Positions 11,374 to 58,700 of a stretch of DNA of 64,000 nucleotides are shown piece after piece. Source of the DNA: Parcubacteria group bacterium Gr01-1014_3 (GTDB lineage: Bacteria; Patescibacteriota; Minisyncoccia; UBA6257; WO2-44-18); NCBI GenBank assembly GCA_007376445.1, contig VMGF01000001.1:316203-380202 (forward strand), given 5' to 3'. Under the pieces are notes generated by a model. It worked only from the letters and a program-made list of their open reading frames with translations, did not search any database and was not told the origin of the DNA. Made by a program: the position numbers and the translations under genes. The first letter of the stretch is position 1, and every line of letters begins with the position of its first letter.

Positions 11374-11497
11374 GTAAATTTTCAATGCTCAATTTTAAAT
11401 TTTCATTGAATTTTCAATGAACTAATTTTTAAACCCTGAAAATTATCAAATTGATAATTGATTGGAAATTGTTGCTTGAAAATTGTAAATTGATTCT

Positions 11498-33522: not shown

Positions 33523-33723
33523 TTATAGACCCTCCGCTTTTTCGAGGTTAAAGTTAACAATTTCCGGTGGAGATGACAAGGATTGGTTTCGGGACTGAAT
33601 GACTCTTTTGGCGAGGAAAGATACGCCCAGGGAAGCGATGGCGCTCAGGATCATTAGTATTATCAATCCAGCTACTACCAGGGCGATCGAGGCCTTTCGA
33701 TGTTTTTCTTGATGGAAGTCCAT
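33523..33723 (-). CDS. hypothetical small membrane protein
   Basis: It has a single TM. Its ATG is formed at the terminus of Family B element copy 1. It overlaps another small ORF (33324-33560) out of frame. This may be a frameshifted gene. Confidence 0.3.
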   Translation of the reverse strand: MDFHQEKHRKASIALVVAGLIILMILSAIASLGVSFLAKRVIQSRNQSLSSPPEIVNFNLEKAEGL

Positions 33724-33840
33724 CCCGTTAGAAGCAGGTCGTCGAAGACGACCGTAGATCTGCCGTCCGACAACGGTTTGGTAAAAATTTTAATTTATTA
33801 TTCGGGTTTTGTGTCATAGATTAGTTGCTTCTAACGGGAT
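33722..33840. repeat. Family B inverted-repeat element, copy 1 (119 nt; ATCCCGTTAGAAGCA ... TGCTTCTAACGGGAT)
   Basis: It has 15-bp terminal inverted repeats. It exactly fills the spacer between the PilO-like stop and the 33723 start. A second 119-nt copy lies at 55628 in inverted orientation. Confidence 0.85.
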
Positions 33841-33845
33841 CCATT

Positions 33846-35475: not shown

Positions 35476-35613
35476 ATGAAGTTAGTCATCGTAGAATCTC
35501 CAACAAAAGTCCCGAAAAATTCCAAATCTTTAATTTGGTTATTTTTCGAGGATCCTCGATTTTGTCATCAAATCAAAGATTTGAACAAAATCGGGACAAA
35601 AACAATCATATGA
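35476..35613 (+). other. 45-codon upstream ORF that is a decayed duplicate of the topA 5' end and ends in ATGA overlapping the topA start
   Basis: MKLVIVESPTKVPKNSKSLIW... compared with the topA N-terminus MKLIIVESPTKAKTISKFLG. The first ~35 nt of the two starts are homologous. The stop TGA overlaps the topA ATG. Confidence 0.5.
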
Positions 35614-37676
35614 AGCTCATAATCGTAGAATCGCCCACTAAAGCTAAAACTATCTCTAAATTCTTAGGGCCTGATTACAAGGTGGAGTCTTCTTATGGTC
35701 ACGTGCGCGATCTTCCCAAAAGCAAACTTGGGGTTGATTTGGAGAATAATTTTGAACTTCAATATGTTATTCCGGTGAAAGCCAGGAAAGTTGTTAACCA
35801 GCTTAAAAAAGACGCGAAAGATAGCGATGAGGTAATTCTCGCGACTGATGAAGACAGAGAAGGCGAGGCGATCGCTTGGCATTTGAGTCAGGCGCTTGGA
35901 TTAAAAGACCAGAAAAATATTAAACGGATCGTTTTTCACGAAATTACCAAAGCCGCGATTGAAAAAGCTCTGCAAAATCCGAGATCGCTTGATCTGAACA
36001 TGGTGGACGCCCAGCAGGCGCGCCGCGCGCTCGACCGCCTGGTGGGTTACAAGCTTTCGCCGTTCTTATGGAAAAAGGTAGCGCGGGGATTGTCGGCTGG
36101 CCGCGTGCAATCCGTGGCGGTGCGGTTGATCGTTGACCGGGAAAACGAGATCCGGGCTTTCAAGCCGGAGGAATACTACACCATCATCGCTAATCTGAAG
36201 GCGGAGTCTGTGACGGCTCCAGTTGAGGCGCTCCTTTCTAAGATCGATGGAAAGTCTTTGGAGAAATTTGATATTAAGAACGGTGAGCAGGCGAACGAAA
36301 TAGTCAGCGATCTCAAAAAACAGAAATTTGTTGTTTCGAATGTGGAAAAGCGAACGGCCAAAAAGAATCCGCCACCGCCGTTCATCACCAGCACGCTTCA
36401 GCAGGAAGCCGTAAAAAGGCTGGGATTTTCTTCAAAGAAAACGATGTTTATCGCCCAACGTCTTTACGAACAAGGTTTGATCACCTATATGCGCACCGAT
36501 TCGGTGAATCTTTCCCAAGACGCGCTTATCGCCGCCAAAAGCTGGCTGGAGAAAACTTTCGGCGCTGAATACGCCGCCGCCGCGCCGCGCGTGTTCGCCG
36601 GTAAATCCCGTCTCGCCCAGGAAGCTCACGAAGCGATCCGCCCGACCGATGTGTCCAACGCGCCGGAAGATCTGAAAGATGAAAGTGATAAAAAACTTTA
36701 CAAAATGATCTGGCAGAGATTTTTGGGTTCGCAGATGCCGGAGGCCAGGGTCGCGCTGTCTTCTCTAGAGATCACCGCGGGAAAATATACCCTGAAGGCC
36801 AGCGGCCAGCAGATCATTTTTGATGGCTACCTTAAAATCTGGCCACAAAAGTTTTCAGAAAAAGAATTGCCGGTGCTGGCGAAGAACTCCGCTCTTGATC
36901 TGGCCGAGGCGAACGCCCTTCAGCACTTTACTGAGCCACCAGCCCGTTATTCTGAAGCCAGCTTAATTAAAGTCTTGGAAGAATACGGCATCGGCCGGCC
37001 TTCAACCTACGCGCCGATCATTTCGGTGATTCAGACACGCAACTATGTCCAAAAAGAAAAAGGCCGCTTCGTGCCGACCGAAACCGGAGAACTGGTCAAT
37101 AAAGTGATGACCGAGCATTTCGCGGCAGTGGTGGATATCGATTTTACCGCCAACATGGAAGAAGAGTTGGACCATATCGCGGACGGCAAGGAAAAATGGC
37201 AGGACGTGATCGGAAAATTCTACGGTCCATTCGCGAAAAATCTGGAAGAGAAATATCTGGAAGTTTCCAAGGCACCAGAAGAAACAACCGATGAGAAATG
37301 CGAAAAATGCGGAAAGCCGATGCTGATCAAAGCCGGCCGGTTTGGCAAATTCATGGCTTGCTCCGGTTTTCCGGATTGCAAAACCACCAAACCACTGCCG
37401 AAATCAGCGCCGAAGCTGACGGGGATCAAGTGTGAAAAATGCGGCGAAGGTGAATTAGTTGAGCGCCGGGTTAACAAGGGCCGGGCTCGCGGAAAGTTTT
37501 TCTGGGGCTGTTCGAAATATCCCAAGTGCGATAACGCGACCTGGCAAGATCCGACTAAGAAAGAAGGAGAGGGCGTCGTGACGGACGGCGCGAAGGCTGT
37601 TGAAAAGCCCGCTGACACTGACAGCGAATCCGAAACACCGGAAGGACCAGAAGAGCTCGATGTCGAATCAAAGTAA
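35610..37676 (+). CDS. topA: DNA topoisomerase I
   Basis: It has the Toprim N-terminus MKLIIVESPTKAKTI, the catalytic region, and three C-terminal CxxC zinc ribbons. The listed ORF start at 35535 is an N-terminal over-extension. Confidence 0.9.
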   Translation: MKLIIVESPTKAKTISKFLGPDYKVESSYGHVRDLPKSKLGVDLENNFELQYVIPVKARKVVNQLKKDAKDSDEVILATDEDREGEAIAWHLSQALGLKDQKNIKRIVFHEITKAAIEKALQNPRSLDLNMVDAQQARRALDRLVGYKLSPFLWKKVARGLSAGRVQSVAVRLIVDRENEIRAFKPEEYYTIIANLKAESVTAPVEALLSKIDGKSLEKFDIKNGEQANEIVSDLKKQKFVVSNVEKRTAKKNPPPPFITSTLQQEAVKRLGFSSKKTMFIAQRLYEQGLITYMRTDSVNLSQDALIAAKSWLEKTFGAEYAAAAPRVFAGKSRLAQEAHEAIRPTDVSNAPEDLKDESDKKLYKMIWQRFLGSQMPEARVALSSLEITAGKYTLKASGQQIIFDGYLKIWPQKFSEKELPVLAKNSALDLAEANALQHFTEPPARYSEASLIKVLEEYGIGRPSTYAPIISVIQTRNYVQKEKGRFVPTETGELVNKVMTEHFAAVVDIDFTANMEEELDHIADGKEKWQDVIGKFYGPFAKNLEEKYLEVSKAPEETTDEKCEKCGKPMLIKAGRFGKFMACSGFPDCKTTKPLPKSAPKLTGIKCEKCGEGELVERRVNKGRARGKFFWGCSKYPKCDNATWQDPTKKEGEGVVTDGAKAVEKPADTDSESETPEGPEELDVESK

Positions 37677-38792: not shown

Positions 38793-38850
38793 GGTCAACC
38801 CCGCACCTTTCTAAGAGTGAGGCCAATACACGAAGTGCTCTTAGAAAGGT
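38793..38850 (+). promoter_or_regulatory. 19-bp perfect inverted repeat hairpin in the divergent region between qng1-like and rel
   Basis: ccccgcacctttctaagag-(20 nt loop)-ctcttagaaaggtgcgggg immediately precedes the rel SD ggagc. A candidate -35/-10 (ttgaaa N17 taatct) lies at about 38752-38780. Confidence 0.5.
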
Positions 38851-40588
38851 GCGGGGTCAAGGAGCTTTTATGAACGTAAAAGAACTTATTCAAAAAGACA
38901 AATACAGCCTAGTGGCGAGAGCCTATGAGTTCGCCCGCAAAGCCCACTTGGGCCAGAAGCGGAAAAACGGCGAACCTTACTTTACGCACGTCGTAGCCGC
39001 CGCTGACTCGGTTTTGGAATGGGGGCTGGATGATGAGACTGCCGCCGCGGCTTTGTTGCACGATGTCGTCGAAGATACGCCTCACCCGATCCAGGAGATC
39101 CGGGAAACATTCGGAGAGGAAGTCGCTTTCCTGGTGGATGGCGTCACCAAGATTGGCAAGGTCCGCTATCGGGGCATTGAGGCCAAGGTGGAAAATCTCC
39201 GGAAATTTATTTTGTATCTCAGCCAGGACATGCGCGTGATCTTGGTGAAGTTGGCCGATCGTCTTCATAATATGAAGACTTTGTATGCAGTTCAGCCGCA
39301 AAAGCAAAAGCGGATCGCGCTCGAAACCATGGAGATCTACGCGCCTCTCGCGTACCGCTTGGGTATGCAGAGGCTGAGTGGAGAGCTGGAAGATCTGTCC
39401 TTTCCATATATTTATCCAGAGGAGCATAAGTGGCTGATCGGTCATGTTAAAGAGCGCTTCGAGGAGCGGGAACGTTTCGCGCAAAAACTTCGCCCGGTTA
39501 TTGAAAAAGAACTTAATAAGAATGGCATTGAATCGGTCCGGATTGATTCACGCGCTAAACGGTATACGAGTTTATATAAAAAATTGCTCCGCTATGATAT
39601 GAACGTCGAGAGCATCTACGATCTCGTGGCTATCCGCATCATCGTTCCTTCGCTGGAGGACTGTTACTCGGCGCTGGGTATCGTCCACAAAATGTACCCG
39701 CCGGTACCTCATCGTTTCAAAGACTATGTCGCTCTTCCGAAGTCCAACGGTTATCGGAGTTTACACACCACGGTTTTCGGTCCGGAAAATAAGATCACCG
39801 AAATCCAGATAAAAACCGAGCAGATGCATGATGAAGCGGAGCATGGCATCGCCGCGCATTTCGCCTATCAAAAAACCAAAGACTCCAAGGATTATCTCAA
39901 GCGCAACGCCGCTTTTGCCGACAAAAAGGAGCTGGTTTGGGTTCAACAGCTGAAGAACTGGCAAAAGGGTTTTACGAATCCGGAAGAATTCCTGGCTTCT
40001 TTGAAGATAGACTTCTTTCAGGACAGGATATTAGCGCTCACGCCTAAGGGCGAAGTCTTTGATCTGCCGTTTGGCGCGACACCGGTAGATTTCGCCTATC
40101 AGATCCACACCGAAATCGGGAATCATTGCTCCGGCGTAAAGATCAACGGCAAGATCGGCACACTCGATCATTTGTTGAAATCCGGCGATATCGTGGAGAT
40201 CATCACGCAAAAAAATAAGAACCCCTCGGATTCCTGGCTTAACTTCGTACGCACCGGATCGGCCAAAAATCATATCCGCGCCGCTTTGCGCCACGGGAAG
40301 ACCACCTTAAATAAGAGCGAACCGCAGTTCACGGATTTTCGTCTGGCCGTAGCAAATAGAGATGGACTATTTAATGAGATTTCAAACTTAATATCCCGTT
40401 CGCACGGAAATATCCTGACGCTTAACGCTCAAACCACGACCAACGCCAAAGGCGGGCAAGCCGGCAATCAAAAACACACTCTACTCAAAATTCGTTGCGC
40501 GGTTTTGGCGAAAGATAAATCTGAAAAGATGCTGGAGAAGTTAAAAGGGTTTAAGGAAATAAAGGAAATTTCTTACAAGTCGGTTTAG
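38849..40588 (+). CDS. rel: bifunctional (p)ppGpp synthetase/hydrolase Rel/SpoT homolog (short, lacks ACT domain)
   Basis: It has an HD hydrolase domain HLGQKRKNGEPYFTHV...LHDVVEDT, a synthetase domain RIDSRAKRYTSLYKKL...YRSLHTTVFGP, and a TGS domain. It ends before a canonical ACT domain. The start may be the Met at 38870. Confidence 0.85.
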   Translation: MRGQGAFMNVKELIQKDKYSLVARAYEFARKAHLGQKRKNGEPYFTHVVAAADSVLEWGLDDETAAAALLHDVVEDTPHPIQEIRETFGEEVAFLVDGVTKIGKVRYRGIEAKVENLRKFILYLSQDMRVILVKLADRLHNMKTLYAVQPQKQKRIALETMEIYAPLAYRLGMQRLSGELEDLSFPYIYPEEHKWLIGHVKERFEERERFAQKLRPVIEKELNKNGIESVRIDSRAKRYTSLYKKLLRYDMNVESIYDLVAIRIIVPSLEDCYSALGIVHKMYPPVPHRFKDYVALPKSNGYRSLHTTVFGPENKITEIQIKTEQMHDEAEHGIAAHFAYQKTKDSKDYLKRNAAFADKKELVWVQQLKNWQKGFTNPEEFLASLKIDFFQDRILALTPKGEVFDLPFGATPVDFAYQIHTEIGNHCSGVKINGKIGTLDHLLKSGDIVEIITQKNKNPSDSWLNFVRTGSAKNHIRAALRHGKTTLNKSEPQFTDFRLAVANRDGLFNEISNLISRSHGNILTLNAQTTTNAKGGQAGNQKHTLLKIRCAVLAKDKSEKMLEKLKGFKEIKEISYKSV

Positions 40589-41559
40589 ACTGTGAAATCT
40601 TGCGGGGGGTACTGCTCGCCCTCTACTGGCTGCCTGCCAGGTAGTGAAAGTTCGGCAGGCTCGCCAGAGGCGAGCGGATCAGCAGTGGCCGAACTTCTAC
40701 TACCTGGTTCCGGGATTATTCTTTGCACGATATTCATCAGTTCTTCGGGAGAATAAAAAGCGATGGTCAGTTTGCCCGTGGCGCCGTCCTGCTCGAGTTT
40801 TACTTTTGTACCAAGCGCGGCTTCCAGGTCTTGTTGTACGCGGAGCAGTTCTGGATTAACGCCATAATTTAAAATCTCTGGCGCCGGCTGGGCTTTTTCT
40901 TGTTTCACTTTATCGATCCGGGATTTTAATTCGCGGACGCTGAGGTTGTTGCGTATAATATCCTCAAAAAGGAAATTTTGCTGCTGGATATCCGGCACGC
41001 TGAGAAGTAGGCGGCCCTGGCTTTCGTTGATCTGGCCACGGGCGACCGCGTCTTGGATCGGGGTCGGAAGAGCGAGCAGGCGGATGGTGTTGGCGACCAC
41101 CTCACGGCTTTTACCAAGGCGGGCGCCGATCTCGCGCTGGGTCAGGTTGAACTCATCCTGAAGCCGGGAGTAGGCGCGGGCGGCTTCGATGGCGTTTAAG
41201 TTGGAGCGCTGGACGTTTTCCAAGATAGCCAACTCCAACCGATCCCGATCGCGATTGATGCTTTTGATGATCGCCGGAATACGTTCCAGGCCGGCCATCT
41301 GGGAAGCTCGCCAGCGCCGTTCACCGGCGATAAGCTGATACTGAACTTGTGTGCCCGTCTCAGTTTCCTGCTCAACCTTGGTGACGATGATCGGCTGAAG
41401 CACGCCGAATTCTCGGATGGAAGCCGCGAGCTCGCCCAATTCTTGTTCGTTAAATTCCCGCCGTGGCTGATACGGGTTAGGGGAGATCCGGTCGGTTTCA
41501 ATTAAAAAAACTGGGCCTTGAATCGGTAAGTCTTCCATAATATTCACAGTATAGCCCAA
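40585..41559 (-). CDS. parB: chromosome partitioning protein ParB/Spo0J
   Basis: It has the ParB box GERRWRA and an HTH. The native C-terminus KLTIAFYSPEELMNIVQRII is extended by about 35 aa that read into Family A element copy 2. Confidence 0.85.
   Translation of the reverse strand: MGYTVNIMEDLPIQGPVFLIETDRISPNPYQPRREFNEQELGELAASIREFGVLQPIIVTKVEQETETGTQVQYQLIAGERRWRASQMAGLERIPAIIKSINRDRDRLELAILENVQRSNLNAIEAARAYSRLQDEFNLTQREIGARLGKSREVVANTIRLLALPTPIQDAVARGQINESQGRLLLSVPDIQQQNFLFEDIIRNNLSVRELKSRIDKVKQEKAQPAPEILNYGVNPELLRVQQDLEAALGTKVKLEQDGATGKLTIAFYSPEELMNIVQRIIPEPGSRSSATADPLASGEPAELSLPGRQPVEGEQYPPQDFTV
40637..40707. repeat. Family A inverted-repeat element, copy 2 (71 nt; CCAGGTAGTGAAAGTTCGGC ... 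GCCGAACTTCTACTACCTGG)
   Basis: It has the same termini as copies 1 and 3, including the conserved TGAAA/TAGAA asymmetry. Its internal stem has a different sequence but remains complementary. Confidence 0.8.
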
Positions 41560-43638: not shown

Positions 43639-43719
43639 GCCCGGGTGGTGAAATGGCAGACACACATCCCTTAAGAGGATGCGCCGCAAGGCTTGCCGGT
43701 TCGAGTCCGGCCCCGGGCA
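43639..43719 (+). tRNA. tRNA-Leu(TAA), type II
   Basis: The cloverleaf is GCCCGGG-TG-GTG...-CATCC-CTTAAGA-GGATG-long arm-GCCGG-TTCGAGT-CCGGC-CCCGGGC-A. Confidence 0.85.
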
Positions 43720-44072
43720 CAATAGATAAAATGCAAACAAAATGCCAGCACAAAAATAGGAGAATCCAATCAACACCGTCGTTTCATCAGTCGGGTTTTA
43801 CCCCAACTATTTCAGAATGTGTAGATTGCAAGTTAGTCATGCAAGAGACGGAATTTCTTCAATTTGAAGCTGTGGTCGAGCTTACAAATTGGCAAAAGTG
43901 GATTCCGATGTTCATTTCAGGGATCGCATTAGTAGTCTCCGTAGTTGGTACCTGGATTAGTTGGTATAAATAATTTTTTCTCTACTCCCGCCAAAGGCGG
44001 TGCCCAAAAATTTATATTGACGTTAATATAAAATTATGCTATAAAATGCGGGTGTCGTAAGATTCAGGCACA

Positions 44073-45935: not shown

Positions 45936-46034
45936 TGTTTATTAATGAATAAATAATTTTCAATTATAAATTATAAATTTTAAATTAATTTAAAATTTTA
46001 AAATTAAAAATTTATAATTCATTTTGGTTAATGA

Positions 46035-47513: not shown

Positions 47514-47648
47514 AAAAATTGATTTTGAGCAAATTCTGTAAAATTTTAAAGTCCAAATTTTAAATTTTAAGTTAATTTTTTAATTTTGAAATTTATAAAT
47601 TGATTTAAAATTGAAAATTTAAAATTGAAAATTCTGTATACTTAAGGT

Positions 47649-48542: not shown

Positions 48543-48563
48543 TGTTGTATAATTAGGAATATG

Positions 48564-48684
48564 CCAGGTAGTGAAAACTCGAGCAATGAATTCAGCGAGA
48601 AAGCTAAGTTTTTACTATCCAGCATGCCAGGCAAGGAGACTCGGTCCTGTCTGGCAAAACTAAACTCGAGTTTCTACTACCTGG
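48564..48684. repeat. Family A inverted-repeat element, copy 3 (121 nt, carries a ~60-nt nested internal insertion)
   Basis: Its termini are ccaggtagtgaaaactcgag ... cctgtctggcaaaactaaactcgagtttctactacctgg. The outer halves are colinear with copy 1. The internal segment itself contains a degenerate end-to-start junction (tttttactatccagcatgccagg). It ends 1 nt before the ATG at 48686. Confidence 0.8.
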
Positions 48685-48685
48685 T

Positions 48686-50053
48686 ATGCGATTAGTTGAA
48701 AAATTCTTTGTAATTGTAGCTTTGGTTCTGGGCGGATGCGCGGTTATTGCAGCGATGGAGCCGAACTATGCCCTGGCGGCTTCCAAGATTATTTCTATCA
48801 GCATAGATAATCCGGATGGGCCGTTAAAATCATCTACGGTTAGTTTCTCTATACCATTTGGCCTGGCGCCGATCAACTTAACCGACGCGATGAATTGGAA
48901 TTCAAGCGCGAGGCGGCTTGAGATCGATCTCGGTTCGTTCACCACCAAAGAAACCAAGACGGTAATTTTTGCTATCGAAGGCGAGCTCGGAAATTATTTA
49001 GTGAGCGGTGAGATCACCGGCGTCTGGCCGAAAACCAACTCGTTGCCGGAAGAATCTTTCAAAGGCACGATCGATCCATTCGTGGTGCTGATCGAGCCGG
49101 AAGGTAGCCAATCTTCAGTTTTAGAATTTCTGGACAATCTTAGGCGTGATCCTCGCGTGGCCGGTCCTATGGCCAAGATCGCCCAGCCGGTTTCCGTGGC
49201 TCTAGGCGCCGTTGGCACAGCCGCCGCGGCTGCCAACGCTTTTATGACGAGCCCGGCGCTTCTCGCCGAGCTTTCCCGCCTGCTCAGCTTGTTTGGCTTC
49301 GGTATGTTCCGTCTTAAAAAACGGAAGCCATGGGGTCGGGTCTACGACCGCCTGACTGATAATCCGATCTATGGAGCGGTAGTTAAAATATTTGATTCAA
49401 AATATAAATTGGCGAAAGAAACGCAGACCACGGACAAAGAAGGTCGTTTTGGATTTTTAGTTTCGTCGGGCGAGTATTACATCCGCATTATACGCGCCGG
49501 CTATGAAGATTATCAGTCCGCGCTTATTAAAATTTCCCAGCCGGATCAGTCTTTGATCTTGGATGTGCCGATGGTAGTAACGGGAGCAACGATAAAGAGG
49601 CCAATGATCAACACCCTGAAACTCAAGCAGCAGCTTCGTGACGTTTTTTATGTCAGCGGTTTGGCGCTGACGGTGATCGGCAGTCTGATCAGCTTGGCGG
49701 TGGCGCTGATAGTGCCGAGTATACTCAACTACGGGATCGTGTTGGTTTATCTGATCCTCTGGGTCTTCCGGATTGGGATGGCGCACGAGCATGTTAAATC
49801 TTTCGGCAAAGTTTTGGATAAGTCCACGAATAAACCGGTGGATCTGGCCGTGGTCAGATTATTCTCCGCCGATCAATCCTGGTTATTGGAGACGCGAGTG
49901 ACCGACGCGAGCGGCAAGTTCCGTTTCTTGGTGAATCACGGCGGTTATTATGTGACTGCCGTCAGAGAAGGATATGGGTCTTTCCAGTCCGCTCCGCTAG
50001 AACTTAAGAAATCCGACGTCTTCGCGCACGATATTAAAATAGAGAGGGCATAG
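48686..50053 (+). CDS. membrane protein with two carboxypeptidase-regulatory-like (CarboxypepD_reg) domains
   Basis: It has an N-terminal TM. Two homologous blocks, VVKIFDSKYKLAKETQTTDKEGRFGFLVSSGEYYIRIIRAGYEDYQS and VVRLFSADQSWLLETRVTDASGKFRFLVNHGGYYVTAVREGYGSFQS, are separated by TM helices. Confidence 0.5.
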   Translation: MRLVEKFFVIVALVLGGCAVIAAMEPNYALAASKIISISIDNPDGPLKSSTVSFSIPFGLAPINLTDAMNWNSSARRLEIDLGSFTTKETKTVIFAIEGELGNYLVSGEITGVWPKTNSLPEESFKGTIDPFVVLIEPEGSQSSVLEFLDNLRRDPRVAGPMAKIAQPVSVALGAVGTAAAAANAFMTSPALLAELSRLLSLFGFGMFRLKKRKPWGRVYDRLTDNPIYGAVVKIFDSKYKLAKETQTTDKEGRFGFLVSSGEYYIRIIRAGYEDYQSALIKISQPDQSLILDVPMVVTGATIKRPMINTLKLKQQLRDVFYVSGLALTVIGSLISLAVALIVPSILNYGIVLVYLILWVFRIGMAHEHVKSFGKVLDKSTNKPVDLAVVRLFSADQSWLLETRVTDASGKFRFLVNHGGYYVTAVREGYGSFQSAPLELKKSDVFAHDIKIERA

Positions 50054-53112: not shown

Positions 53113-55560
53113 ATGGCCGATCTGAATCCAGCAAAACCAAAAACTCCGGACCAGTCCGCCTCTGACCGATTGGTTAAAAAAGACAATCGCAGGCTCACCT
53201 GGACGATAGTTGGGTTAATTACCGTAGTCACGCTTCTGCTTTTATGTATTTTACCGGGCAGTCCGGCGCTTGCCGTTCTTTTGAAATTGCCGGAAAAAGC
53301 CCAGCCAGTGATTACTAAGCTTGAGTCAATCTCTTTTGATCCAGTTGGCCCGTCTTCCGGTTCCGGCGGCGGATCTTCCAGCGTCGAGTTTCCAGTCGGG
53401 TCTTCCATTATAGTTAATGTTCCGCCCGATTTGACTAGGCCTCGACCCACGCCAACTCCTCCTCGCCGTTGGCCTGACTGTGTTCGTCCGGTTATCGGCA
53501 TCACCACGGCTACCACCGAAATTGAAGAATGTCCGGATTCCAGTATTCCAAAACCACCGCCACCGCCACCAACTCCAGTACCGGGTGAACCGAAGAAGCC
53601 AGCGGTCTTTGATTTCGGAGACGCGCCGGATAAGCCGAAAGGCGGTTTCCCATCATTACTATCCAGCAGCGGAGCCAGGCACTTTGACGTGAGCCGGTTT
53701 TATTTGGGCAAACGCGTGGATGTTGAGGGAGATTCTAAGCAGGTAGATGCCGATAGTGCCACTCCGCCAGCCGGTGTCGGTCCTGACGATGGTTTGAATA
53801 TAACCCTAAGTCTTGGCGTGGGCGCCGCGGGTACGGCTCTTGTAGATGGCATCGCGGAAATTCACAATAATAATTGGCCGGAAGAAAAACCGATCTATTT
53901 AAATGCCTTATATGATTTCAATAACAATCTTCAATGGGACATTCCAGGAGAGCACGTAGTTACCGATTATGAATTACACATTCCGCCAGGCGAGAGCGTG
54001 TACGGCAATATTATTTCCTTAAGCGCGAATAGATTAAATTGGCTCCGGGCCACGGTCTCAGAAATTCCACTTGGACTCGGCTATAACGGTTCCTGGTCAA
54101 AGGCGTTTGATTTTGGTGAAACTGAAGATTATTTCAAGCCGGAAATTTATCCTATCCATATAGTCAAAGGTTCGCACTTCGTCTTTACGTCGGAGGATAG
54201 AGAGCACAAGTGGGGTCCTTCGCAGATACATATAACTGGACCTACATACGGAGTTCCGGTAGAGACAGGGGGAGGTAGGCCAAAAGATCCCGGCCCAGCC
54301 ACGATTGATATGACCAAGCCGACTCCAGCCAAGCCAGGAACCGATGTTCCGACCTTTGATCCACGGCTGTTTACCCATGAAGGGGCAACGACGCGTCTGA
54401 CTCCGAGAAAACCAGGGTCAAACGTTGATCCGAACCCGACTTCTTTAATCATTACCTTACCGACGCAGCGGGGTGGATTATCGGTGGTGAATATATTTCC
54501 GATTCCAGATTTCTTAACCAGCGCCATTACTCAAATTCAAATTCGCAATCTCGAGCGGACATTGTTTCATCTGGAGCAGTTAGCGGATCGCCCGATTACT
54601 AGAATCCGAACAGTTCAGAAAGAGATCGAGGTACTCAAAGAAGTTATCAAGCTTGTGCCGACCCCGACTACACCGATCGGCGGTATCACCGCGCCGGCGC
54701 AGTATAAAATTGAGGTAATCGGTATCGATACCGGCAAAGGAACAATGGACATTCAGGCCTATGGCTTTGTATCCGGCAATAATGAGGTTGAAATATTGGA
54801 ATACTCTGCCAACGGACAATTACTTAATAAAACCAGCAAGCCATTTAATACCGCGAGTTTCCGGTTTGAATTTAAGAGTTTCTCAGGAGCCGTCTCGATA
54901 GTAATGCGATTGGTTCATAATGGCGATGTAGTGCCGGGTACTAGCATTAATGTTCCGTCCGTGGCTACGATAACCGGGGGACTGAGCGGCGCTGGGCCAC
55001 AGTGCCAATACACGATCTCGCTGGACGATACTCTTGCTGATGGGACGGCGAATACCGCTTACAGCCAGACAGTTACCGCGACCGGTGGCAGTGGCTCATA
55101 TACCTACGCCGTTACGGCTGGTTCTTTACCAACAGGCCTGACCCTTGCTTCTAACGGAACAATTACCGGCACGCCGACTACCGCCGCGACCTACGCATTT
55201 ACGATCACCGCGACGGATGTTAGCGGCTGTACCGCAAGCCGGGCATATTCTGTGACTATTGCCAGCGCTTGCCCAACCGTTTCTTTCTCTCCTACCGACT
55301 TCGTAGATGGTCAAGATGGGCGTGCAAGCGATACGAGCGTAGCTGGTACCTTGACTTCCAGTACCGGAACAGGAAGTAACCAGGCTTTGAATATGCCTCC
55401 TGGGGTTGATGTGAATATATCTGGATCTGGCACGGGTGTTATAACCTGGAACATACTTGGTACGCCTATAGGCGTGGGCGATTACTCCTTTACCGCTAGG
55501 ATAGCAGTTGCTGGTTGTTCTAATTTAGATACACCATTTACTTGGACGGTTACGCCTTAA
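53113..55560 (+). CDS. large surface protein with GEVED-like domain and C-terminal He_PIG (putative Ig) domain
   Basis: It has an N-terminal TM and a Pro-rich linker. The block FDFGDAPDKPKGGFPSLLSSSGARH...DVEGDSKQVDAD...GETEDYF is GEVED-like. The C-terminus YSQTVTATGGSGSYTYAVTAGSLPTGLTLASNGTITGTPT matches He_PIG. A terminator ccagctcctttattggagctgg lies at about 55583-55610. Confidence 0.6.
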   Translation: MADLNPAKPKTPDQSASDRLVKKDNRRLTWTIVGLITVVTLLLLCILPGSPALAVLLKLPEKAQPVITKLESISFDPVGPSSGSGGGSSSVEFPVGSSIIVNVPPDLTRPRPTPTPPRRWPDCVRPVIGITTATTEIEECPDSSIPKPPPPPPTPVPGEPKKPAVFDFGDAPDKPKGGFPSLLSSSGARHFDVSRFYLGKRVDVEGDSKQVDADSATPPAGVGPDDGLNITLSLGVGAAGTALVDGIAEIHNNNWPEEKPIYLNALYDFNNNLQWDIPGEHVVTDYELHIPPGESVYGNIISLSANRLNWLRATVSEIPLGLGYNGSWSKAFDFGETEDYFKPEIYPIHIVKGSHFVFTSEDREHKWGPSQIHITGPTYGVPVETGGGRPKDPGPATIDMTKPTPAKPGTDVPTFDPRLFTHEGATTRLTPRKPGSNVDPNPTSLIITLPTQRGGLSVVNIFPIPDFLTSAITQIQIRNLERTLFHLEQLADRPITRIRTVQKEIEVLKEVIKLVPTPTTPIGGITAPAQYKIEVIGIDTGKGTMDIQAYGFVSGNNEVEILEYSANGQLLNKTSKPFNTASFRFEFKSFSGAVSIVMRLVHNGDVVPGTSINVPSVATITGGLSGAGPQCQYTISLDDTLADGTANTAYSQTVTATGGSGSYTYAVTAGSLPTGLTLASNGTITGTPTTAATYAFTITATDVSGCTASRAYSVTIASACPTVSFSPTDFVDGQDGRASDTSVAGTLTSSTGTGSNQALNMPPGVDVNISGSGTGVITWNILGTPIGVGDYSFTARIAVAGCSNLDTPFTWTVTP

Positions 55561-55627
55561 AACTCTAACCTGTTAACAAAACCAGCTCCTTTATTGGAGC
55601 TGGTTTTGTTATAATAAAATGGAATGA

Positions 55628-55746
55628 ATCCCGTTAGAAGCAACTGGTCAATAATTATGAAAAACGATCTCATTTTTACGATAACCCTAGAATCAAATAG
55701 TCGGGCACTTTACGGTCGTCTAATGACGACCTGCTTCTAACGGGAT
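55628..55746. repeat. Family B inverted-repeat element, copy 2 (119 nt, inverted relative to copy 1)
   Basis: atcccgttagaagcaac ... cggtcgtctaatgacgacctgcttctaacgggat. The last AT of the right terminus plus a flanking G forms the start codon of the 55745 gene. Confidence 0.85.
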
Positions 55747-58700
55747 GAAGAAGATCCTCTTTTTAGCCACTGGCGCGGTTTTAATCGTTTTACTAGCAAT
55801 GATCGCTTACGGCTATGCTTTTTATCGTAGCCTGAATCCATTTATAGTTTTTGATCCGGGATTTTATTTTACTCCACAGCTCGAGTTGGTTTTAAAAACC
55901 AAGGGCCAGCCTTCCGCGGCGGGTCAACAGGCGAGCGTTTTAGAAACGCTCACGCTTCCGATCGTCTGGCCACCGATTACCGGAAGCTCGGTATTTAATT
56001 TCACTCTACCCAGCCAGGTTTCCGCTGCCTTGGAGTCTAACGGCCAGCTTGTTAACCCATATTTAGTTTTGAGTTTTGCGTTAGTTCCTAGCGAGGGCGT
56101 TTCTTCGGTGCCACCTCTCACGGTGGGCGAATTGTCATTTGAGCCAATCGTTCCACCAGCCGCGACGGGGGAGTTCGAGTTGATTTTGCCGATCACAAGC
56201 GATCAAGAAAATGTTAGCGTGGTTCTACCGCCGAGCCTGATCGCCGCCTACAATAATCTTGCTAACGAAATTATCGCCGCCGAGGAAGCTGGTGGAGCAG
56301 AAGAGTCTTCGGCGACTGGTGGTTCGTCTGTTTCCAGCGGAGGAACGGCACCGTCTAGTGGGGCTGGTTCGCCAGCTTCTGGCGCAGGCTTACCCGCCCC
56401 TGGCGTTGGCTCCACGGGTTCAGCTCCATCATCTGGCGGATCACCGTCTTCTGGTAGTGGTACAGGAGCGCCTGGCGGTTCTAGCGTGCCTGCTTCTGGT
56501 TCTGGTTTTCCCACCTCTGGCTCGGGCTTTCCTGCCTCTGGCACTGGTTTACCAGCACCATCGAATGTGATTACTGAGACCGCGTCCGAACCAGGAATTA
56601 TCGAATCTTTTATCAACGCCATCGACGATGCCGTGGTCGCCATCAATGAATTTTTTACCGAACCATTCACTTCGATATTTATTGGAGAGCCAACTGACAC
56701 ACCTTCCACGCCATCGACTATCGTTTCATCATCAGGAACTGGCGGTGCGACATCGGCAGGTTCTGTTCCCGGCACTACGGTGCTCGCGCCTGCTGGCAGT
56801 ACTGCTACTTCTCCGGTTACATCAGGCACTTCTGGTTCCACGGCTACTGGCGGAACAGGACCGACGGCTCCCACGTCAGGCACCACCGCGACTTCGCCAT
56901 CCGGCATTTCTGCGACCGCTCCTGCTACATCAGTTTCAGCCCCGGCAACTGGCGATTCCACAGGATTTTTTGATAATGTTTTCAGCGCGATTGATACCGC
57001 AGTTACTTCAATCACAGGCTTCTTTATTGATCCGATAGTGACGACGGTTACTTCGATTTCGGATTCTATCAATATCATTGCCACAAATCTGCAACCCACC
57101 GTGTATCGGGATCTTGGTGACGCGCCCGCACCAGGGAATGGCGGGAATTATCCGTCGTTACTCGTAGATAACGGTTCTCGCCACAAAATTACCTTCCCAT
57201 TGTATTTAGGTTACTTGGTAGATGTCGAGCCAGACTCGCTTCAGGTAGATGACGATAATTTCGATGATGGCTTTGAGTCAACCACTTGGCTGATTAAAAT
57301 TTCCAATAACAGCTGGACCGAAGGGCCGATCTATCTCAATATGCTGATTGATCTTAATCACGACGGCGATTGGGACGAATCCGATACGGAGTGGGCTGTG
57401 AAAAATCAGCAGGTCATAGTTCCTGCCGGTACTTCCAAGACAGTCTTGCCACTCATCTCCAATCTGCTGGTTGGTTTGAATTTCCCGATCACGGATACTT
57501 GGATTCGCCTGACAGTTACTGCCACGCCGGTGGACGCTCCATATATCGGCACCGGAAGTTTCATGTATGGTGAGTCGGAAGATTATTTTGTGACGATCAA
57601 AACTCCACCACCACCAGCTAAAGCGTCTGTTTATAACAGCGGTGTGCCAGCAGTAAAACTGCCCGGAAAATTGGTTGGAGATATTGTTTCTGAGGTTGTT
57701 ATTGTAACTTCACCGACTGCCGATCCGGGCGGCTCTCCGGCCCCTAAGCCATCGGGAGTGGATACGGTGAATCAGTATGACCATCAGATCGAAGGATCTT
57801 TCTGGCATAGTTATCAATCAACTTACTACGAATGGAAGAAGCGTACCGAGGTTGAGACAGTCTCTGCCGGCAAAGCACCAGGCGTTGCGCCAGCTCCGGC
57901 TCCAGCCCCCACTCCATCAACGCCAGGACCGAGTACTGGTGGAACAACATCAGCGGATCGTCCACCATACGATCATCAAACCGAAGGATCTTTCTGGCAT
58001 AGCTACAGCGATTCATACTATCGTTGGAAAAATACGATTGAAGTTCCGGTTTCTACTGGCAAGCCTCCGGTTTCCGCGCCAACTCCAGCGCCAACTCCAA
58101 CTCCAACTCCAGCCCCAACTCCAGCGCCAACGCCAACTCCCGGCTCGGTCCGGCCGGATGGTTTTAAATATACCTACCACGTCTTCAACTCCAGCGATTA
58201 TGTTCCAGGTGTTTATCATATTGGCGAGACCACTGACATTAAATACACCGATCCGGGCATTGAGAAAGATGGTTATAGAGTTACCCCATTACCGTTCTAC
58301 TGCGCCGATTCTTCAAGCGATTCAGACAACTGCACCCCACCGAAGCCAATAGCCGTCGAAGATCTACCTTCAGTCCCAAGCGTGGATACATCAAAGCCGT
58401 TAATCACGCCGGTTACAGTTGTTATTGACGAAATTCCTGGCGGAGCCGGTAGCGATGTTTTGACTGCCCCGTCAGTATTCCAGAGGATTTTTGATAGCAT
58501 TACGGAATTTTTAAGCGTGGAGCCAGCCACACCGTCGATCCATGACACCATCCTTTCAATTCGTATTAAGAATCTTCGCGATACCGCCACGCAACCAGCG
58601 CCATTACCTTCTCCGATCGTACCTATTGAACCAACGCCCGGTCCTAAAACACCATTCTCGCCAACCGAACCACCGTATGTAGTCCCTCCCGTAGTTATTC

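Follow-up and report, generated by a model that had tools for sequence, protein, structure and literature searches.

A MITE-like inverted-repeat element on start codons across Patescibacteria, probably tolerated through translational coupling

A family of short inverted-repeat elements was found directly against the start codons of unrelated genes in many lineages of Patescibacteria. In the reading that we consider probable, the element is non-autonomous and MITE-like, its insertion at the start codon is tolerated through translational coupling, and it has spread through the Patescibacteria (CPR). The window, meaning the whole stretch analyzed, comprises 64,000 nt of Parcubacteria group bacterium Gr01-1014_3 (GCA_007376445.1, contig VMGF01000001.1, 316,203-380,202) and carries two copies. 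The family matches no Rfam family or paper. Rfam searches returned only tRNAs in the window at the gathering threshold and nothing at E<=1 on three element-bearing loci, and literature searches found neither arm string in any relevant paper and nothing pertinent that joined Patescibacteria, CPR, or Saccharibacteria with MITE, start codon, or leaderless. Start codons and CPR both go unmentioned in a 2024 review of prokaryotic MITEs (PMC10969869).

Anatomy of the two window copies

An earlier note on this DNA had described two copies of 119 nt, at 33722-33840 (minus sense) and 55628-55746 (plus sense), and these lengths were borne out, as were the 15-nt termini ATCCCGTTAGAAGCA and TGCTTCTAACGGGAT, which are exact in both copies. 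Within the window, the exact terminal 15-mer occurs in four places only, namely the four arms of both copies, the sole near match lying at 55146-55160 with 2 mismatches. The termini form perfect inverted repeats of 13-15 bp. Comparison of the copies in the sense of the downstream gene also agreed with the description of one conserved terminus and a divergent interior. Common to both are the 5' arm followed by ACT and a 3' block of the form TACGGTCGTC-loop-GACGACC-T-GCTTCTAACGGGATG, and the AT-rich interior is unlike between the two. The features of copy 1 are as follows.

33722..33840, minus strand: whole inverted-repeat element, as delimited in the earlier note (sequence; covariance model)
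33723-33839, minus strand: element proper, T...A
33827..33840, minus strand: 5' strand of the outer stem P1 (ATCCCGTTAGAAGC), pairing with 33722-33735 (fold)
33722..33735, minus strand: 3' strand of P1 (GCTTCTAACGGGAT)
33737..33753, minus strand: local hairpin GGTCGTC-TTC-GACGACC (fold and compensatory changes)
33840..33843, minus strand: upstream copy of the target duplication, TGGA (sequence; family duplication statistics)
33719..33722, minus strand: downstream copy of TGGA (sequence)
33728..33844, minus strand: 39-codon frame from the old ATG to the TAA of the arm (sequence)

Copy 1 scored 64.5 bits with the covariance model in the minus sense versus 34.2 bits in the plus sense. The 3' strand of P1, separated from the local hairpin by one unpaired T (33736), contains a TAA stop at 33730-33728 as well as the first two bases, A and T, of the ATG of the gene (33723-33721). 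Upstream, the A at 33844 and the TGGA that follows it form an old ATG (33844-33842), 2 nt past the stop codon of a PilO-like gene (33848-33846); downstream, the terminal A (33723) and the TG of the second TGGA form the working ATG of a 66-aa membrane ORF, 33523-33723. The only HTH protein encoded near copy 1 was considered as a transposase but had no support from NCBIfam or PDB and was not convincing.

The corresponding features of copy 2 are listed below.

55628..55746, plus strand: whole inverted-repeat element (sequence; covariance model)
55629-55745, plus strand: element proper, T...A
55628..55641, plus strand: 5' strand of P1, pairing with 55733-55746 (fold)
55733..55746, plus strand: 3' strand of P1, with the TAA at 55738-55740 and the A and T of the ATG at 55745-55747
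55714..55731, plus strand: local hairpin GGTCGTC-TAAT-GACGACC, followed by an unpaired T (55732) (fold)
55625..55628, plus strand: upstream copy of the target duplication, TGAA, the old ATG being 55624-55626
55746..55749, plus strand: downstream copy of TGAA
55624..55740, plus strand: uninterrupted 38-codon ORF (MNPVRSNWSIIMKNDLIFTITLESNSRALYGRLMTTCF, then stop) from the old ATG to the TAA of the arm (sequence)
55607..55615, plus strand: extended -10 box TGTTATAAT, 8 nt 5' of the old ATG (direct sequence reading)
55574..55611, plus strand: hairpin resembling a terminator, perfect over 16 bp, belonging to the 815-aa gene upstream; context, outside the element

Here the covariance model gave 71.3 bits in the plus sense versus 37.9 bits in the minus sense, and the A at 55745 with the following TG begins a 1492-aa He_PIG/GEVED surface protein (55745-60223). 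Both copies had been thought to fill an intergenic spacer precisely. This is so for copy 1, where 122 nt run from the PilO-like stop (33846) to the ATG, but copy 2 takes up only the last 117 nt of a 184-nt spacer that also contains the terminator hairpin and the extended -10 box. That box is missing from a simple promoter scan because it has no -35 box; its position predicts a near-leaderless transcript from the old start, so that copy 2 would be transcribed as a 5' leader. A search for close homologues of the 1492-aa protein returned only its own record, and no empty site was obtained there. Exact-sequence look-ups found neither of the two downstream proteins of the window on record with the start codons proposed here. 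Some public gene starts are wrong: G01um10143_395 is called 18 codons short and the gene at locus L064 is called 39 and 68 codons short.

Distribution, start-codon junction, and mobility

The family is not confined to the two loci from which it had been proposed. When GTDB species genomes were scanned for just the arm cores, the matches listed contained more than 119 loci, which is a lower bound, and further diverged copies were recovered by the covariance model. Copies were seen in Saccharibacteria and Paceibacteria and in Levy-, Kaiser-, Nomura-, Jorgensen-, Moran-, and Microgenomates-type MAGs, and viral contigs gave 0 matches. Elements are ~100-125 nt long, with extremes of 93 and 146 nt, and share the ends T-CCCGTTAGAAGC ... 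GCTTCTAACGGG-A, of which 13 nt are almost invariant across very deep lineages (the outer ~10 bp nearly so in 106 unique loci); interiors are unrelated in sequence across the family. No orphan single arms were found outside elements in 0.93 Mb of CPR DNA. A likeness of the arms to tRNA-fMet, 16S rRNA, B. subtilis dif, and anticodon loops was not supported on inspection.

An ATG with a long ORF adjoins the element in 101 of 125 copies found by pattern and in 24 of 30 out-of-sample copies, which were collected later with the covariance model and without any ATG criterion; the abutment is not due to chance. Among 136 copies of resolved orientation, 109 had a start codon and a long ORF (108 ATG, 1 GTG), and since several of the 23 copies scored as lacking a start codon appear to have been oriented wrongly, the true share is closer to 86%. 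At ssb, the junction ATG matches the N terminus of orthologous SSB proteins, MYLNKA. Orientation relative to the gene is 91:1.

The flank upstream of the element repeats the start codon plus 1-3 nt. Among 135 copies, 77 had a target duplication of 4 nt, 14 one of 3 nt, and 8 one of 5 nt; TGAA (35 copies) and TGGA (17 copies) were the most frequent sequences, and the host base 5' of the duplication was A in 85 of 99 copies. The terminal AT of each window copy had been taken to supply, with the next G, the ATG of the ORFs at 33523-33723 (minus strand) and 55745-60223 (plus strand). That junction stands, but the element most likely donates the A only, the TG belonging to the 3-5-bp target duplication and the old ATG surviving upstream. 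Read in this way, the sequences indicate that the insertion site is A/TG-NN of a start codon (the slash marking the break), where the terminal A and the duplicated TG rebuild the ATG in use, and that the old ATG is left upstream of the element together with its promoter or its coupling context. Variants of the element that end in G yield GTG starts. The left edge of the duplication is fixed at the ATG and its length varies from 3 to 5 nt, which is unusual for a transposase. The start-codon bias may reflect either a target preference (A-TGRA) or selection acting on very compact genomes.

Several observations bear on mobility. The downstream genes are unrelated, with 86 Pfam families among 84 proteins, and include those for SSB, L2, L18, trigger factor, SecDF, aminoacyl-tRNA synthetases, and TsaD, some of them essential. 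Of 80 ssb orthologues, 78 are without the element, and the interiors at six filled ssb starts are unrelated to one another. Near-identical copies were found in one MAG at different loci whose flanks differ, three being ATGAA and one ATGCG (L018, L021), so that the duplication is locus-specific even between near-identical copies. Up to 4 copies occur within 8 kb, and 2 are present in the window. The empty ssb orthologues and the near-identical copies at different loci therefore indicate that the element is mobile. Three hallmarks of a MITE are present, namely small size with terminal inverted repeats, a flanking target duplication, and multiple copies that vary in presence and absence, and coding capacity within the element is limited to an unconserved ORF of 6-43 codons. 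An autonomous partner or transposase was not found, with no long-range arm pairs in 1.1 Mb of CPR DNA. Nor was a clean filled/empty pair found, the closest being the ssb pair L036/L120, in which the flanking genes are 90-93% identical and the whole spacer differs. In the L064 population, seven contigs are identical across the downstream PilN-like/PilO junction, and all four contigs that reach far enough upstream carry the element. Contig assemblies break at the element repeat.

RNA structure, the mini-ORF, and competing explanations

When the two window copies were folded as RNA and compared with shuffled sequences, z scores of -4.5 and -5.5 were obtained. P1 is nearly invariant in the 106 unique loci, and its inner pairs vary in a compensatory manner (arm variants AGAAGT/ACTTCT, AGAGGC/GCCTCT, and AGAAAT/ATTTCT). 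Covariation in P2 was seen in 73 of 101 copies, and in 14 subfamily members the local hairpin of the window type shows compensatory changes at 6 of its 7 pairs. The structure of helix, unpaired U, and arm adjoins the gene in a fixed orientation. A strand test based on G-U versus A-C pairs in P1 gave 20 G-U pairs, 17 of them at the outermost pair, which is made with the flank, leaving few informative pairs.

The 3' arm places its stop codon just before the start of the gene, the junction reading TAA-CGGG-ATG. The sense frame that ends at this TAA is depleted of stop codons: their density is 3.7% there, 9.8 and 8.0% in the remaining sense frames, and 5.6-6.5% for the antisense strand. Stop-free elements numbered 43 in the TAA-ending frame versus 4 and 7 in the other frames, and the depletion was unchanged once interiors had been clustered (92 unrelated clusters). 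An ATG-initiated ORF of at least 5 codons ending at the TAA of the arm is present in 64 of 101 copies, or 77 of 101 if NTG starts are allowed, the corresponding numbers being 5-12 for the other frames and 16-19 for the antisense strand; between about a quarter and a third of the copies have no recognizable ORF of this kind. An ATG-initiated ORF in the frame of the gene that reads through into it was found in only 3 of 101 copies. The frame-specific depletion of stops, together with the ATG-initiated ORFs that end at the TAA of the arm, suggests translational coupling. A conserved ORF that starts from the old ATG was rejected as a general feature, given that the old ATG falls evenly across the frames (30/26/24) and most such ORFs stop early; the signal in the TAA-ending frame is independent of the frame of the old ATG. 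The 39-codon frame is kept in both window copies. In copy 2, it is the 38-codon ORF that spans the whole element and ends 4 nt ahead of the ATG of the gene. In copy 1, the frame is made up of a first part, ATG..AAC TAA, of 8 codons including the stop (33844-33821) and followed by TCT, and a second part that begins with an ATG at 33817 and runs for 29 sense codons to the TAA at 33730-33728, again 4 nt ahead of the ATG of the gene.

The new ATG is not preceded by a Shine-Dalgarno (SD) sequence, and only 8 of 79 old start codons are preceded by an SD-like motif. Across the family, TAWAWT peaks 6-10 nt 5' of the old ATG, a subset of the old starts having a -10 box at leaderless spacing, and the probable transcription start is the old start, upstream of the element and not inside it. 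Under the coupling model, the element would be co-transcribed as a leader whose long stem holds the A and U of the new AUG in base pairs. Ribosomes would initiate either on the old AUG or on one within the AT-rich loop, and translation of a mini-ORF of unconstrained sequence would melt the 3' arm, stop at the UAA 4 nt before the AUG of the gene, and allow re-initiation there. The mini-ORF of copy 2 would be the full 38 codons from the old, near-leaderless ATG, and copy 1 would act as a relay, from the PilO-like stop to a 7-codon ORF, then to the 29-codon ORF, and then to the gene. Such coupled re-initiation is proposed to make insertion on a start codon harmless, even in essential genes.

That a strong stem pairs the A and U of the AUG would also be expected if the element were a cis-acting structured leader RNA, such as a protein-, metabolite-, or temperature-sensing switch, in which the stem sequesters the start, the arms bind an RNA-binding regulator shared across CPR, and any mobility is secondary. 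The almost invariant arms in deep lineages with a free interior, the covariation of the hairpin and P2, and the presence of the element on the same gene family in distant genomes (PilN-like genes at L015, L019, and L064; ssb) would all fit such a switch. We nevertheless regard it as unlikely: the genes it would control are functionally unrelated, the ssb orthologues are nearly all without it, near-identical copies sit at different loci with locus-specific duplications, there is no Rfam match, and the start-codon duplication would have no role. An account that accepts the insertion but places its tolerance at the RNA level is, in our judgment, likewise improbable. Here the ~21-bp P1+P2 stem would be cleaved by an RNase III-type enzyme, or would simply bring the new AUG next to the old 5' end or SD, an arrangement known from phage T4 gene 38 with its split ribosome-binding site, or the initiating ribosome would hop from the old AUG to the new one as in T4 gene 60 or mitochondrial 'byp', in which take-off and landing codons form a direct repeat around a hairpin. 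Matched AUG(NN) sequences do lie on either side of a stable hairpin, P1 juxtaposes both AUGs, the stem is near the length of an RNase III substrate, and the copies that have no mini-ORF are more easily accommodated; Correia elements are known RNase III substrates (PMC10969869). However, RNA-level tolerance predicts neither the frame-specific depletion of stops nor the ATG-initiated ORFs that end at the TAA of the arm, the old AUG has no directly following stop codon, unlike that of gene 60, and cleavage within the stem would still leave a leader without an SD sequence.

A DNA recombination site, whether an invertible promoter switch, a folded cassette site like the attC of integrons, or an Xer/dif-like site, is very improbable, even though adjacent copies form a 12-6-12 palindrome, GCTTCTAACGGG-ATGAAT-CCCGTTAGAAGC, with tandem junctions of this 6-nt spacer in L024 and L045, and even though the outer stem, extrahelical bases, inner stem, and variable loop resemble a folded attC, with GTTAGAA / TTCTAAC giving 6 of 7 matches to attC core sites. 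Orientation fixed at 91:1 means that the element is not an inverton, and the covariance model favors the sense strand over the antisense by ~30 bits. The box order GTT...AAC is the reverse of the R''(RYYYAAC)...R'(GTTRRRY) of attC, the elements precede core syntenic housekeeping genes and not cassettes, tandem junctions exist at just 2 of 206 loci, and the flanks carry target duplications. We give hardly any credence to the conserved 13-mer being a DNA uptake sequence of naturally competent CPR bacteria, arranged in inverted pairs. The motif is short and highly conserved over lineages dependent on DNA uptake, the window contains dprA and type IV pilus genes, and inverted pairs are typical of the neisserial uptake sequence; against this, density is low (2 pairs in the 64-kb window, 4 elements in 211 kb of ssb loci), the 13-mer was never seen as single copies spread through genes in 1.1 Mb of CPR DNA, and start-codon position, orientation, and target duplication are all strict.

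Relation to known systems and significance

Among known elements, the Correia elements of Neisseria (CREE/nemis, a MITE of ~100-150 bp) are similar in having terminal inverted repeats, a short target duplication, and many gene-adjacent copies. They are co-transcribed with genes, and their long hairpins affect expression, RNase III cleaving at the inverted repeats (PMC10969869). Correia elements duplicate TA, are found in one genus only, at differing distances from genes, and act via promoters, IHF sites, and RNA cleavage, whereas the start-codon element sits exactly on the start codon in a single orientation, duplicates TG-NN, regenerates the ATG with its terminal base, carries a stop 4 nt before the AUG of the gene, and spans a superphylum. 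Rickettsia palindromic elements (RPEs) are small, palindromic, and mobile, contain an open frame, and persist in compact genomes by compatibility with translation of the host gene (PMC10969869). The start-codon element resembles them in each of these respects; RPEs, however, insert in frame within coding regions and join the protein, whereas the frame described here terminates before the ATG of the gene. REPINs are likewise hairpin-forming doublets of inverted repeats of ~100 nt. REP/REPIN sequences are non-autonomous, can persist over long times, and rely on an enzyme encoded by a single-copy host gene (RAYT). REPINs are extragenic, usually lie after genes, lack a target duplication, and differ between species; the arms of the start-codon element, in contrast to REP, are not self-complementary, no GTAG-type motif was found in them, and a target duplication is present.

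Coupling through upstream ORFs is familiar from mok/hok, the overlapping ORFs of insertion sequences, and UAA-N-AUG junctions, where translation of an ORF unfolds the structure concealing the next start and terminates a few nucleotides away, and re-initiation follows. In those cases, the ORF is tied to a fixed locus, whereas the start-codon element is proposed to be a mobile cassette with an unconstrained peptide. Translational bypass in T4 gene 60 and Magnusiomyces 'byp' also involves a mobile hairpin insert between matched codons. Bypass takes place during elongation, over 27-55 nt and with a stop directly after take-off; with the start-codon element, the gap is ~115 nt, lies at initiation, and has a conserved ORF running through it.

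A selfish MITE would not ordinarily keep its 13-nt ends near-invariant across very deep lineages, and this constancy hints at a function or at a conserved partner. A tentative reading, which we hold to be possible but rather doubtful, is that the element goes beyond a parasite able to persist on start codons and is a 'portable start site', a pan-Patescibacteria mobile cassette whose invariant 13-nt ends are recognized by a conserved CPR factor. This putative factor would be a domesticated transposase or recombinase or an RNA-binding protein. Copies ending in T..A would target A/TG-NN starts and copies ending in C..G would target G/TTGA/C -35 boxes, the signal being regenerated in each case, and initiation by the host would be replaced by coupled re-initiation from the mini-ORF. 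If this were true, translation of hundreds of unrelated genes would come under one shared handle, available to the cell or to the element.

CPR genomes are tiny and gene-dense and had been regarded as poor in mobile DNA. A repeat family in most CPR lineages that sits on start codons, including those of essential genes, would point to a new way for mobile DNA to be harmless, in which the element rebuilds the signal that it splits and brings its own route for the ribosome. Translation initiation in CPR is poorly known, and the element poses testable questions about it. Its invariant ends could guide the search for the mobilizing enzyme, which might become a genetic tool for CPR.

Anatomy and breadth of Family B

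The two 119-nt copies of the inverted-repeat element Family B claimed in the earlier note are present in the window at 33722-33840 (copy 1) and 55628-55746 (copy 2), in opposite orientation (gene sense minus and plus, respectively), and both end in the exact 15-mers ATCCCGTTAGAAGCA / TGCTTCTAACGGGAT. The 15-mer arm has no further exact match within the 64-kb window; a single arm-like 15-mer with 2 mismatches, GTTCCGTTAGAAGCA (55146-55160, minus strand, within an 815-aa ORF), lacks a partner arm and is probably a chance match. Alignment in gene sense bore out the conservation of one terminus with its adjacent sequence and the divergence of the interior: the 5' arm plus ACT and a 3' block, TACGGTCGTC-loop-GACGACC-T-GCTTCTAACGGGATG, are common to both copies, and the AT-rich interiors are unrelated. 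When folded as RNA, both form a closing stem with an internal hairpin (-41 and -43 kcal/mol) and are more stable than dinucleotide shuffles (z-scores of -4.5 and -5.5). The claim that each copy precisely fills an intergenic spacer holds for copy 1, which occupies a 122-nt gap downstream of a PilO-like gene, but not for copy 2, which shares its spacer with a terminator hairpin and a -10 box. The features concerned, in which the junction ATG is the start codon at the gene-proximal end of the element, are as follows.

33523-33723, minus strand, 66-aa membrane ORF opened by the junction ATG of copy 1
55745-60223, plus strand, 1492-aa He_PIG/GEVED protein opened by the junction ATG of copy 2
55574-55611, terminator hairpin in the copy 2 spacer
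55607-55615, extended -10 box TGTTATAAT in the copy 2 spacer

A scan of one-genome-per-species GTDB contigs with the 11-nt cores of both arms, spaced 76-106 nt apart, returned at least 119 loci, so the termini are not limited to the two loci of the window. The listed loci lie in MAGs labelled Saccharibacteria, Paceibacteria/Parcubacteria, Levy-, Kaiser-, Nomura-, Jorgensen-, Zambryski-, Lipton-, Moran- and Taylorbacteria, and Microgenomates, with a minority of the element-bearing contigs among the listed matches binned outside those lineages; certain MAGs carry 3-4 copies within 8 kb, and the viral contigs searched gave no matches. A covariance model built on 101 oriented copies found only copies 1 and 2 in the window (each ~30 bits higher in gene sense), four elements in a separate 211-kb set of CPR DNA, and, within the first 100 loci, ~30 additional copies of greater divergence. 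Two Logan contigs (L203 and L204) begin at about the end of the element, consistent with the repeat breaking assemblies.

The outer stem formed by both arms (P1) reads T-CCCGTTAGAAGC / GCTTCTAACGGG-A. The ten outermost pairs hardly change across 106 unique loci, and variation in the inner pairs is compensatory only (AGAAGT/ACTTCT, AGAGGC/GCCTCT, AGAAAT/ATTTCT, and AGAGAT/ATCTCT). Directly 5' of the gene-proximal (3') arm there is always a helix plus one unpaired U, in two forms. In 73 of 101 copies, this is a long-range helix (CGCGATC/GATCGCG, CGCGGTC/GACCGCG, CACGATC/GATCGTG, or CGCGGAC/GTCCGCG) with a covarying 4-nt bulge, which makes two pairing registers possible. Most of the remaining 28, including both window copies, carry a local hairpin; among 14 copies with this hairpin, double compensatory changes affect 6 of its 7 pairs, and the first five pairs are never broken. 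Outside these helices the interiors are AT-rich and unrelated, with the 101 elements falling into 92 blastn clusters.

Insertion at gene starts

The terminal AT and the next G had been said to make the downstream ATG. They do so in both copies, but the element itself most likely contributes only the terminal A, the TG belonging to a duplicated target. Among 125 copies found by pattern, 101 have ...CTAACGG-G directly abutting an ATG with an ORF of 40 codons or more; their gene-side junction is on a constant side relative to the asymmetric interior, and the orientation signature relative to the gene is 91:1. The same arrangement occurs in 24 of the 30 copies later found by the model, for which no ATG criterion was used. 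In total, a start codon with a long ORF stands at the element end in 109 of 136 orientation-resolved copies (108 ATG, 1 GTG), the true share being nearer 86% because several remaining copies are mis-oriented by the orientation rule. The junction ATG is the true start: SSB orthologues without the element begin (ATG-TAT/TAC-TTA-AAT-AAA) exactly at this codon. The public gene call G01um10143_395 (protein P0001, window 55745) starts 18 codons downstream of the junction ATG, and public calls of a PilN-like gene at locus L064 (proteins P0022 and P0023) are 39 and 68 codons short of it, likely because no Shine-Dalgarno (SD) motif precedes the true start.

The 84 complete downstream proteins matched 86 different Pfam families, so the element set is not a regulon. 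Downstream genes include those for SSB, L2, L18, trigger factor, SecD/F, several aminoacyl-tRNA synthetases, TsaD, MraW, and RNase J, and the element is thus tolerated before essential genes; ssb and a PilN-like gene carry it in very distant genomes.

The upstream flank is almost always ATG-N(1-3)-T-CCCG, N being the bases that follow the downstream ATG. With the element limits set at Y-CCCG...CGGG-R, 77 of 135 copies have a flanking direct repeat of 4 nt, 14 have one of 3 nt, and 8 have one of 5 nt; TGAA (35), TGGA (17), and TGA (9) are the most frequent sequences, and A is the host base 5' of the repeat in 85 of 99. The duplicated stretch varies in length and is fixed at its left edge. The old ATG is therefore kept upstream of the element, and the new one consists of the element's terminal A and the duplicated TG; at L049, a G-ended variant gives a GTG start downstream of the old ATG. 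Four near-identical copies from one MAG (three at L018, one at L021) are flanked by TGAA three times and TGCG once, so the repeat comes from the target and not from the element.

In an SSB metagenome scan, 78 of 80 orthologous loci were without the element. The filled ssb loci (two metagenome and four GTDB) differ in their interiors and even in their arm variants, which means independent, repeated insertion at one start codon. A clean empty site was sought through the closest filled and empty pair (L036 and L120) and a Hainich population, and none was obtained: L036 and L120 are 90-93% identical in both flanking genes and differ in the entire spacer, and in one Hainich population all four contigs extending far enough upstream contain the element. 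Many CPR intergenic spacers hold AT-rich, low-complexity palindromic repeats that are wholly different between close relatives (window 45962-46022, 47542-47626, and 11377-11484; upstream of ssb at L120, L123, L127, L145, L183, and L188).

A subfamily ending in C..G instead of T..A (L095:3860-4040, L044, L045, L050, L092, L093, and L106) has GTTGAC on both sides, a TTGA duplication, and no start codon directly after the element. L095 reads TTGACC-17 nt-TATGAT-7 nt-ATG, its flanking repeat being the -35 box of a leaderless-type promoter, as in several loci; downstream of L095 and L106, TTGAC(C/T) and a 17-nt spacer precede a -10 box, TATGAT or TACAGT. These motifs suggest insertion into -35 promoter boxes, with regeneration.

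Reading frame through the element and expression of the downstream gene

The extended -10 box of copy 2 ends 8 nt 5' of the old ATG, which predicts a near-leaderless transcript from the old start and would make the element an mRNA leader. Family-wide, strict TAWAWT hexamers are concentrated 6-10 nt 5' of the old ATG, with 12 in this 5-nt bin versus 16 elsewhere in the 50-nt upstream stretch analyzed. Of 79 copies, only 8 have an SD-like motif at the usual spacing. The old ATG of copy 1 follows the stop of the PilO-like gene by 2 nt (TGA-AA-ATG), which reads as a classical coupled junction.

The new ATG has no SD, and its A and U are paired within P1. Read in the frame ...TGC TTC TAA, the 3' arm supplies a stop, after which come CGGG and the ATG. 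In the sense frame ending at this TAA, 3.7% of interior codons are stops, compared with 9.8 and 8.0% in the other sense frames and 5.6-6.5% in the antisense frames. This frame is stop-free in 43 of 101 elements versus 4 and 7 in the other frames (39.4 versus 3.5 and 7.0 with the 92 interior clusters weighted once each). Of 101 copies, 64 have a mini-ORF of at least 5 codons from an ATG to the arm's TAA, or 77 if GTG and TTG starts are counted; the same criterion gives 5-12 in other frames and 16-19 for the antisense strand. The old ATG is the ORF start in 19 cases, 16 of which end at the arm's TAA; other ORFs start at an ATG within the AT-rich loop, mostly 30-50 nt in. Copy 2 has a full 38-codon ORF from old ATG to TAA, and copy 1 a 39-codon frame with one stop at codon 8, two codons past which an ATG opens a 29-codon ORF ending at the TAA. 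The mini-ORF peptides show no conservation.

The best reading of these frames is that the downstream gene is expressed through translational coupling: ribosomes translating the mini-ORF would melt the 3' arm, stop at the TAA 4 nt short of the gene's AUG, and then re-initiate, and insertion would be neutral by construction. A mini-ORF ending at the arm's TAA is absent in a quarter to a third of copies. RNA processing, stem-bridged initiation, or hopping of the initiating ribosome are less likely routes to expression. Some of the copies lacking the mini-ORF have SD-like purine runs. Across interiors, SD-like purine pentamers are eight-fold commoner on the sense strand (50 versus 6 antisense; examples are L018, L005, L019, and L072). 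Their peak, 24-28 nt 5' of the 3' arm, puts them about 37-41 nt upstream of the gene's ATG, too distant for a normal SD.

Other repeats of the window and relation to known elements

Further repeats were noted in the window. Hairpin elements termed Family A, with arms CCAGGTAGTGAAA / TTCTACTACCTGG, lie at 1463-1526, 48561-48687, and 40637-40707, show the ATG-element-ATG arrangement of Family B where ORFs 1525-2223 and 48686-50053 begin, and have an arm similar to the 5' part of tRNA-Leu (43639-43720); the arm was absent from all of 199 other CPR loci, which makes the family lineage-specific. An inverted repeat at 35509-35597 (region 35477-35643) has terminal TCCCG...CGGGA, as in Family B, and is flanked by diverged copies of the first 11 topA codons (ATGAAGTTAGTCATCGTAGAATC at 35477 and ATGAAGCTCATAATCGTAGAATC at 35611) that differ mostly synonymously. 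The upstream copy opens a 45-codon ORF across the repeat, and its TGA overlaps the real topA ATG (ATATGA), apparently another coupling arrangement. A further repeat family may be represented by a perfect 20-bp hairpin, ACCCCGCACCTTTCTAAGAG / CTCTTAGAAAGGTGCGGGGT (38798-38857), which immediately precedes an SD (GGAG) and the ATG at 38871.

Family B failed each test as an Rfam RNA family, gene-specific leader, inverton, attC site, REPIN, or DNA uptake sequence. Rfam gave no family matching the element in the window and three element-bearing loci, and neither the arm strings nor a description of such an element was found in the literature searched; Family B is undescribed as far as these literature and database searches show. 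It fits the operational definition of a MITE in being small, having terminal inverted repeats and a duplicated target, occurring in many copies, and being present in some genomes and absent from others, except that it has no known autonomous partner. In how it works it bears some likeness to Correia elements (co-transcribed hairpins of inverted repeats), and it resembles the Rickettsia palindromic elements, which survive through compatibility with translation (PMC10969869). Unlike the described MITEs found, it is placed exactly on the start codon, which it regenerates, lies in a single orientation, pairs an ORF selected only for openness with a stop codon 4 nt 5' of the gene's AUG, and keeps near-identical ends throughout a superphylum.

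Family B is thus a real finding, ordinary in class (MITE-like) and unusual in behavior and breadth. The fixed left edge, ends far more conserved than is usual for selfish repeats, the recurrence at ssb and the PilN-like gene, and the GTTGAC subfamily allow for both a conserved partner acting in trans and genuine targeting of gene-start signals.
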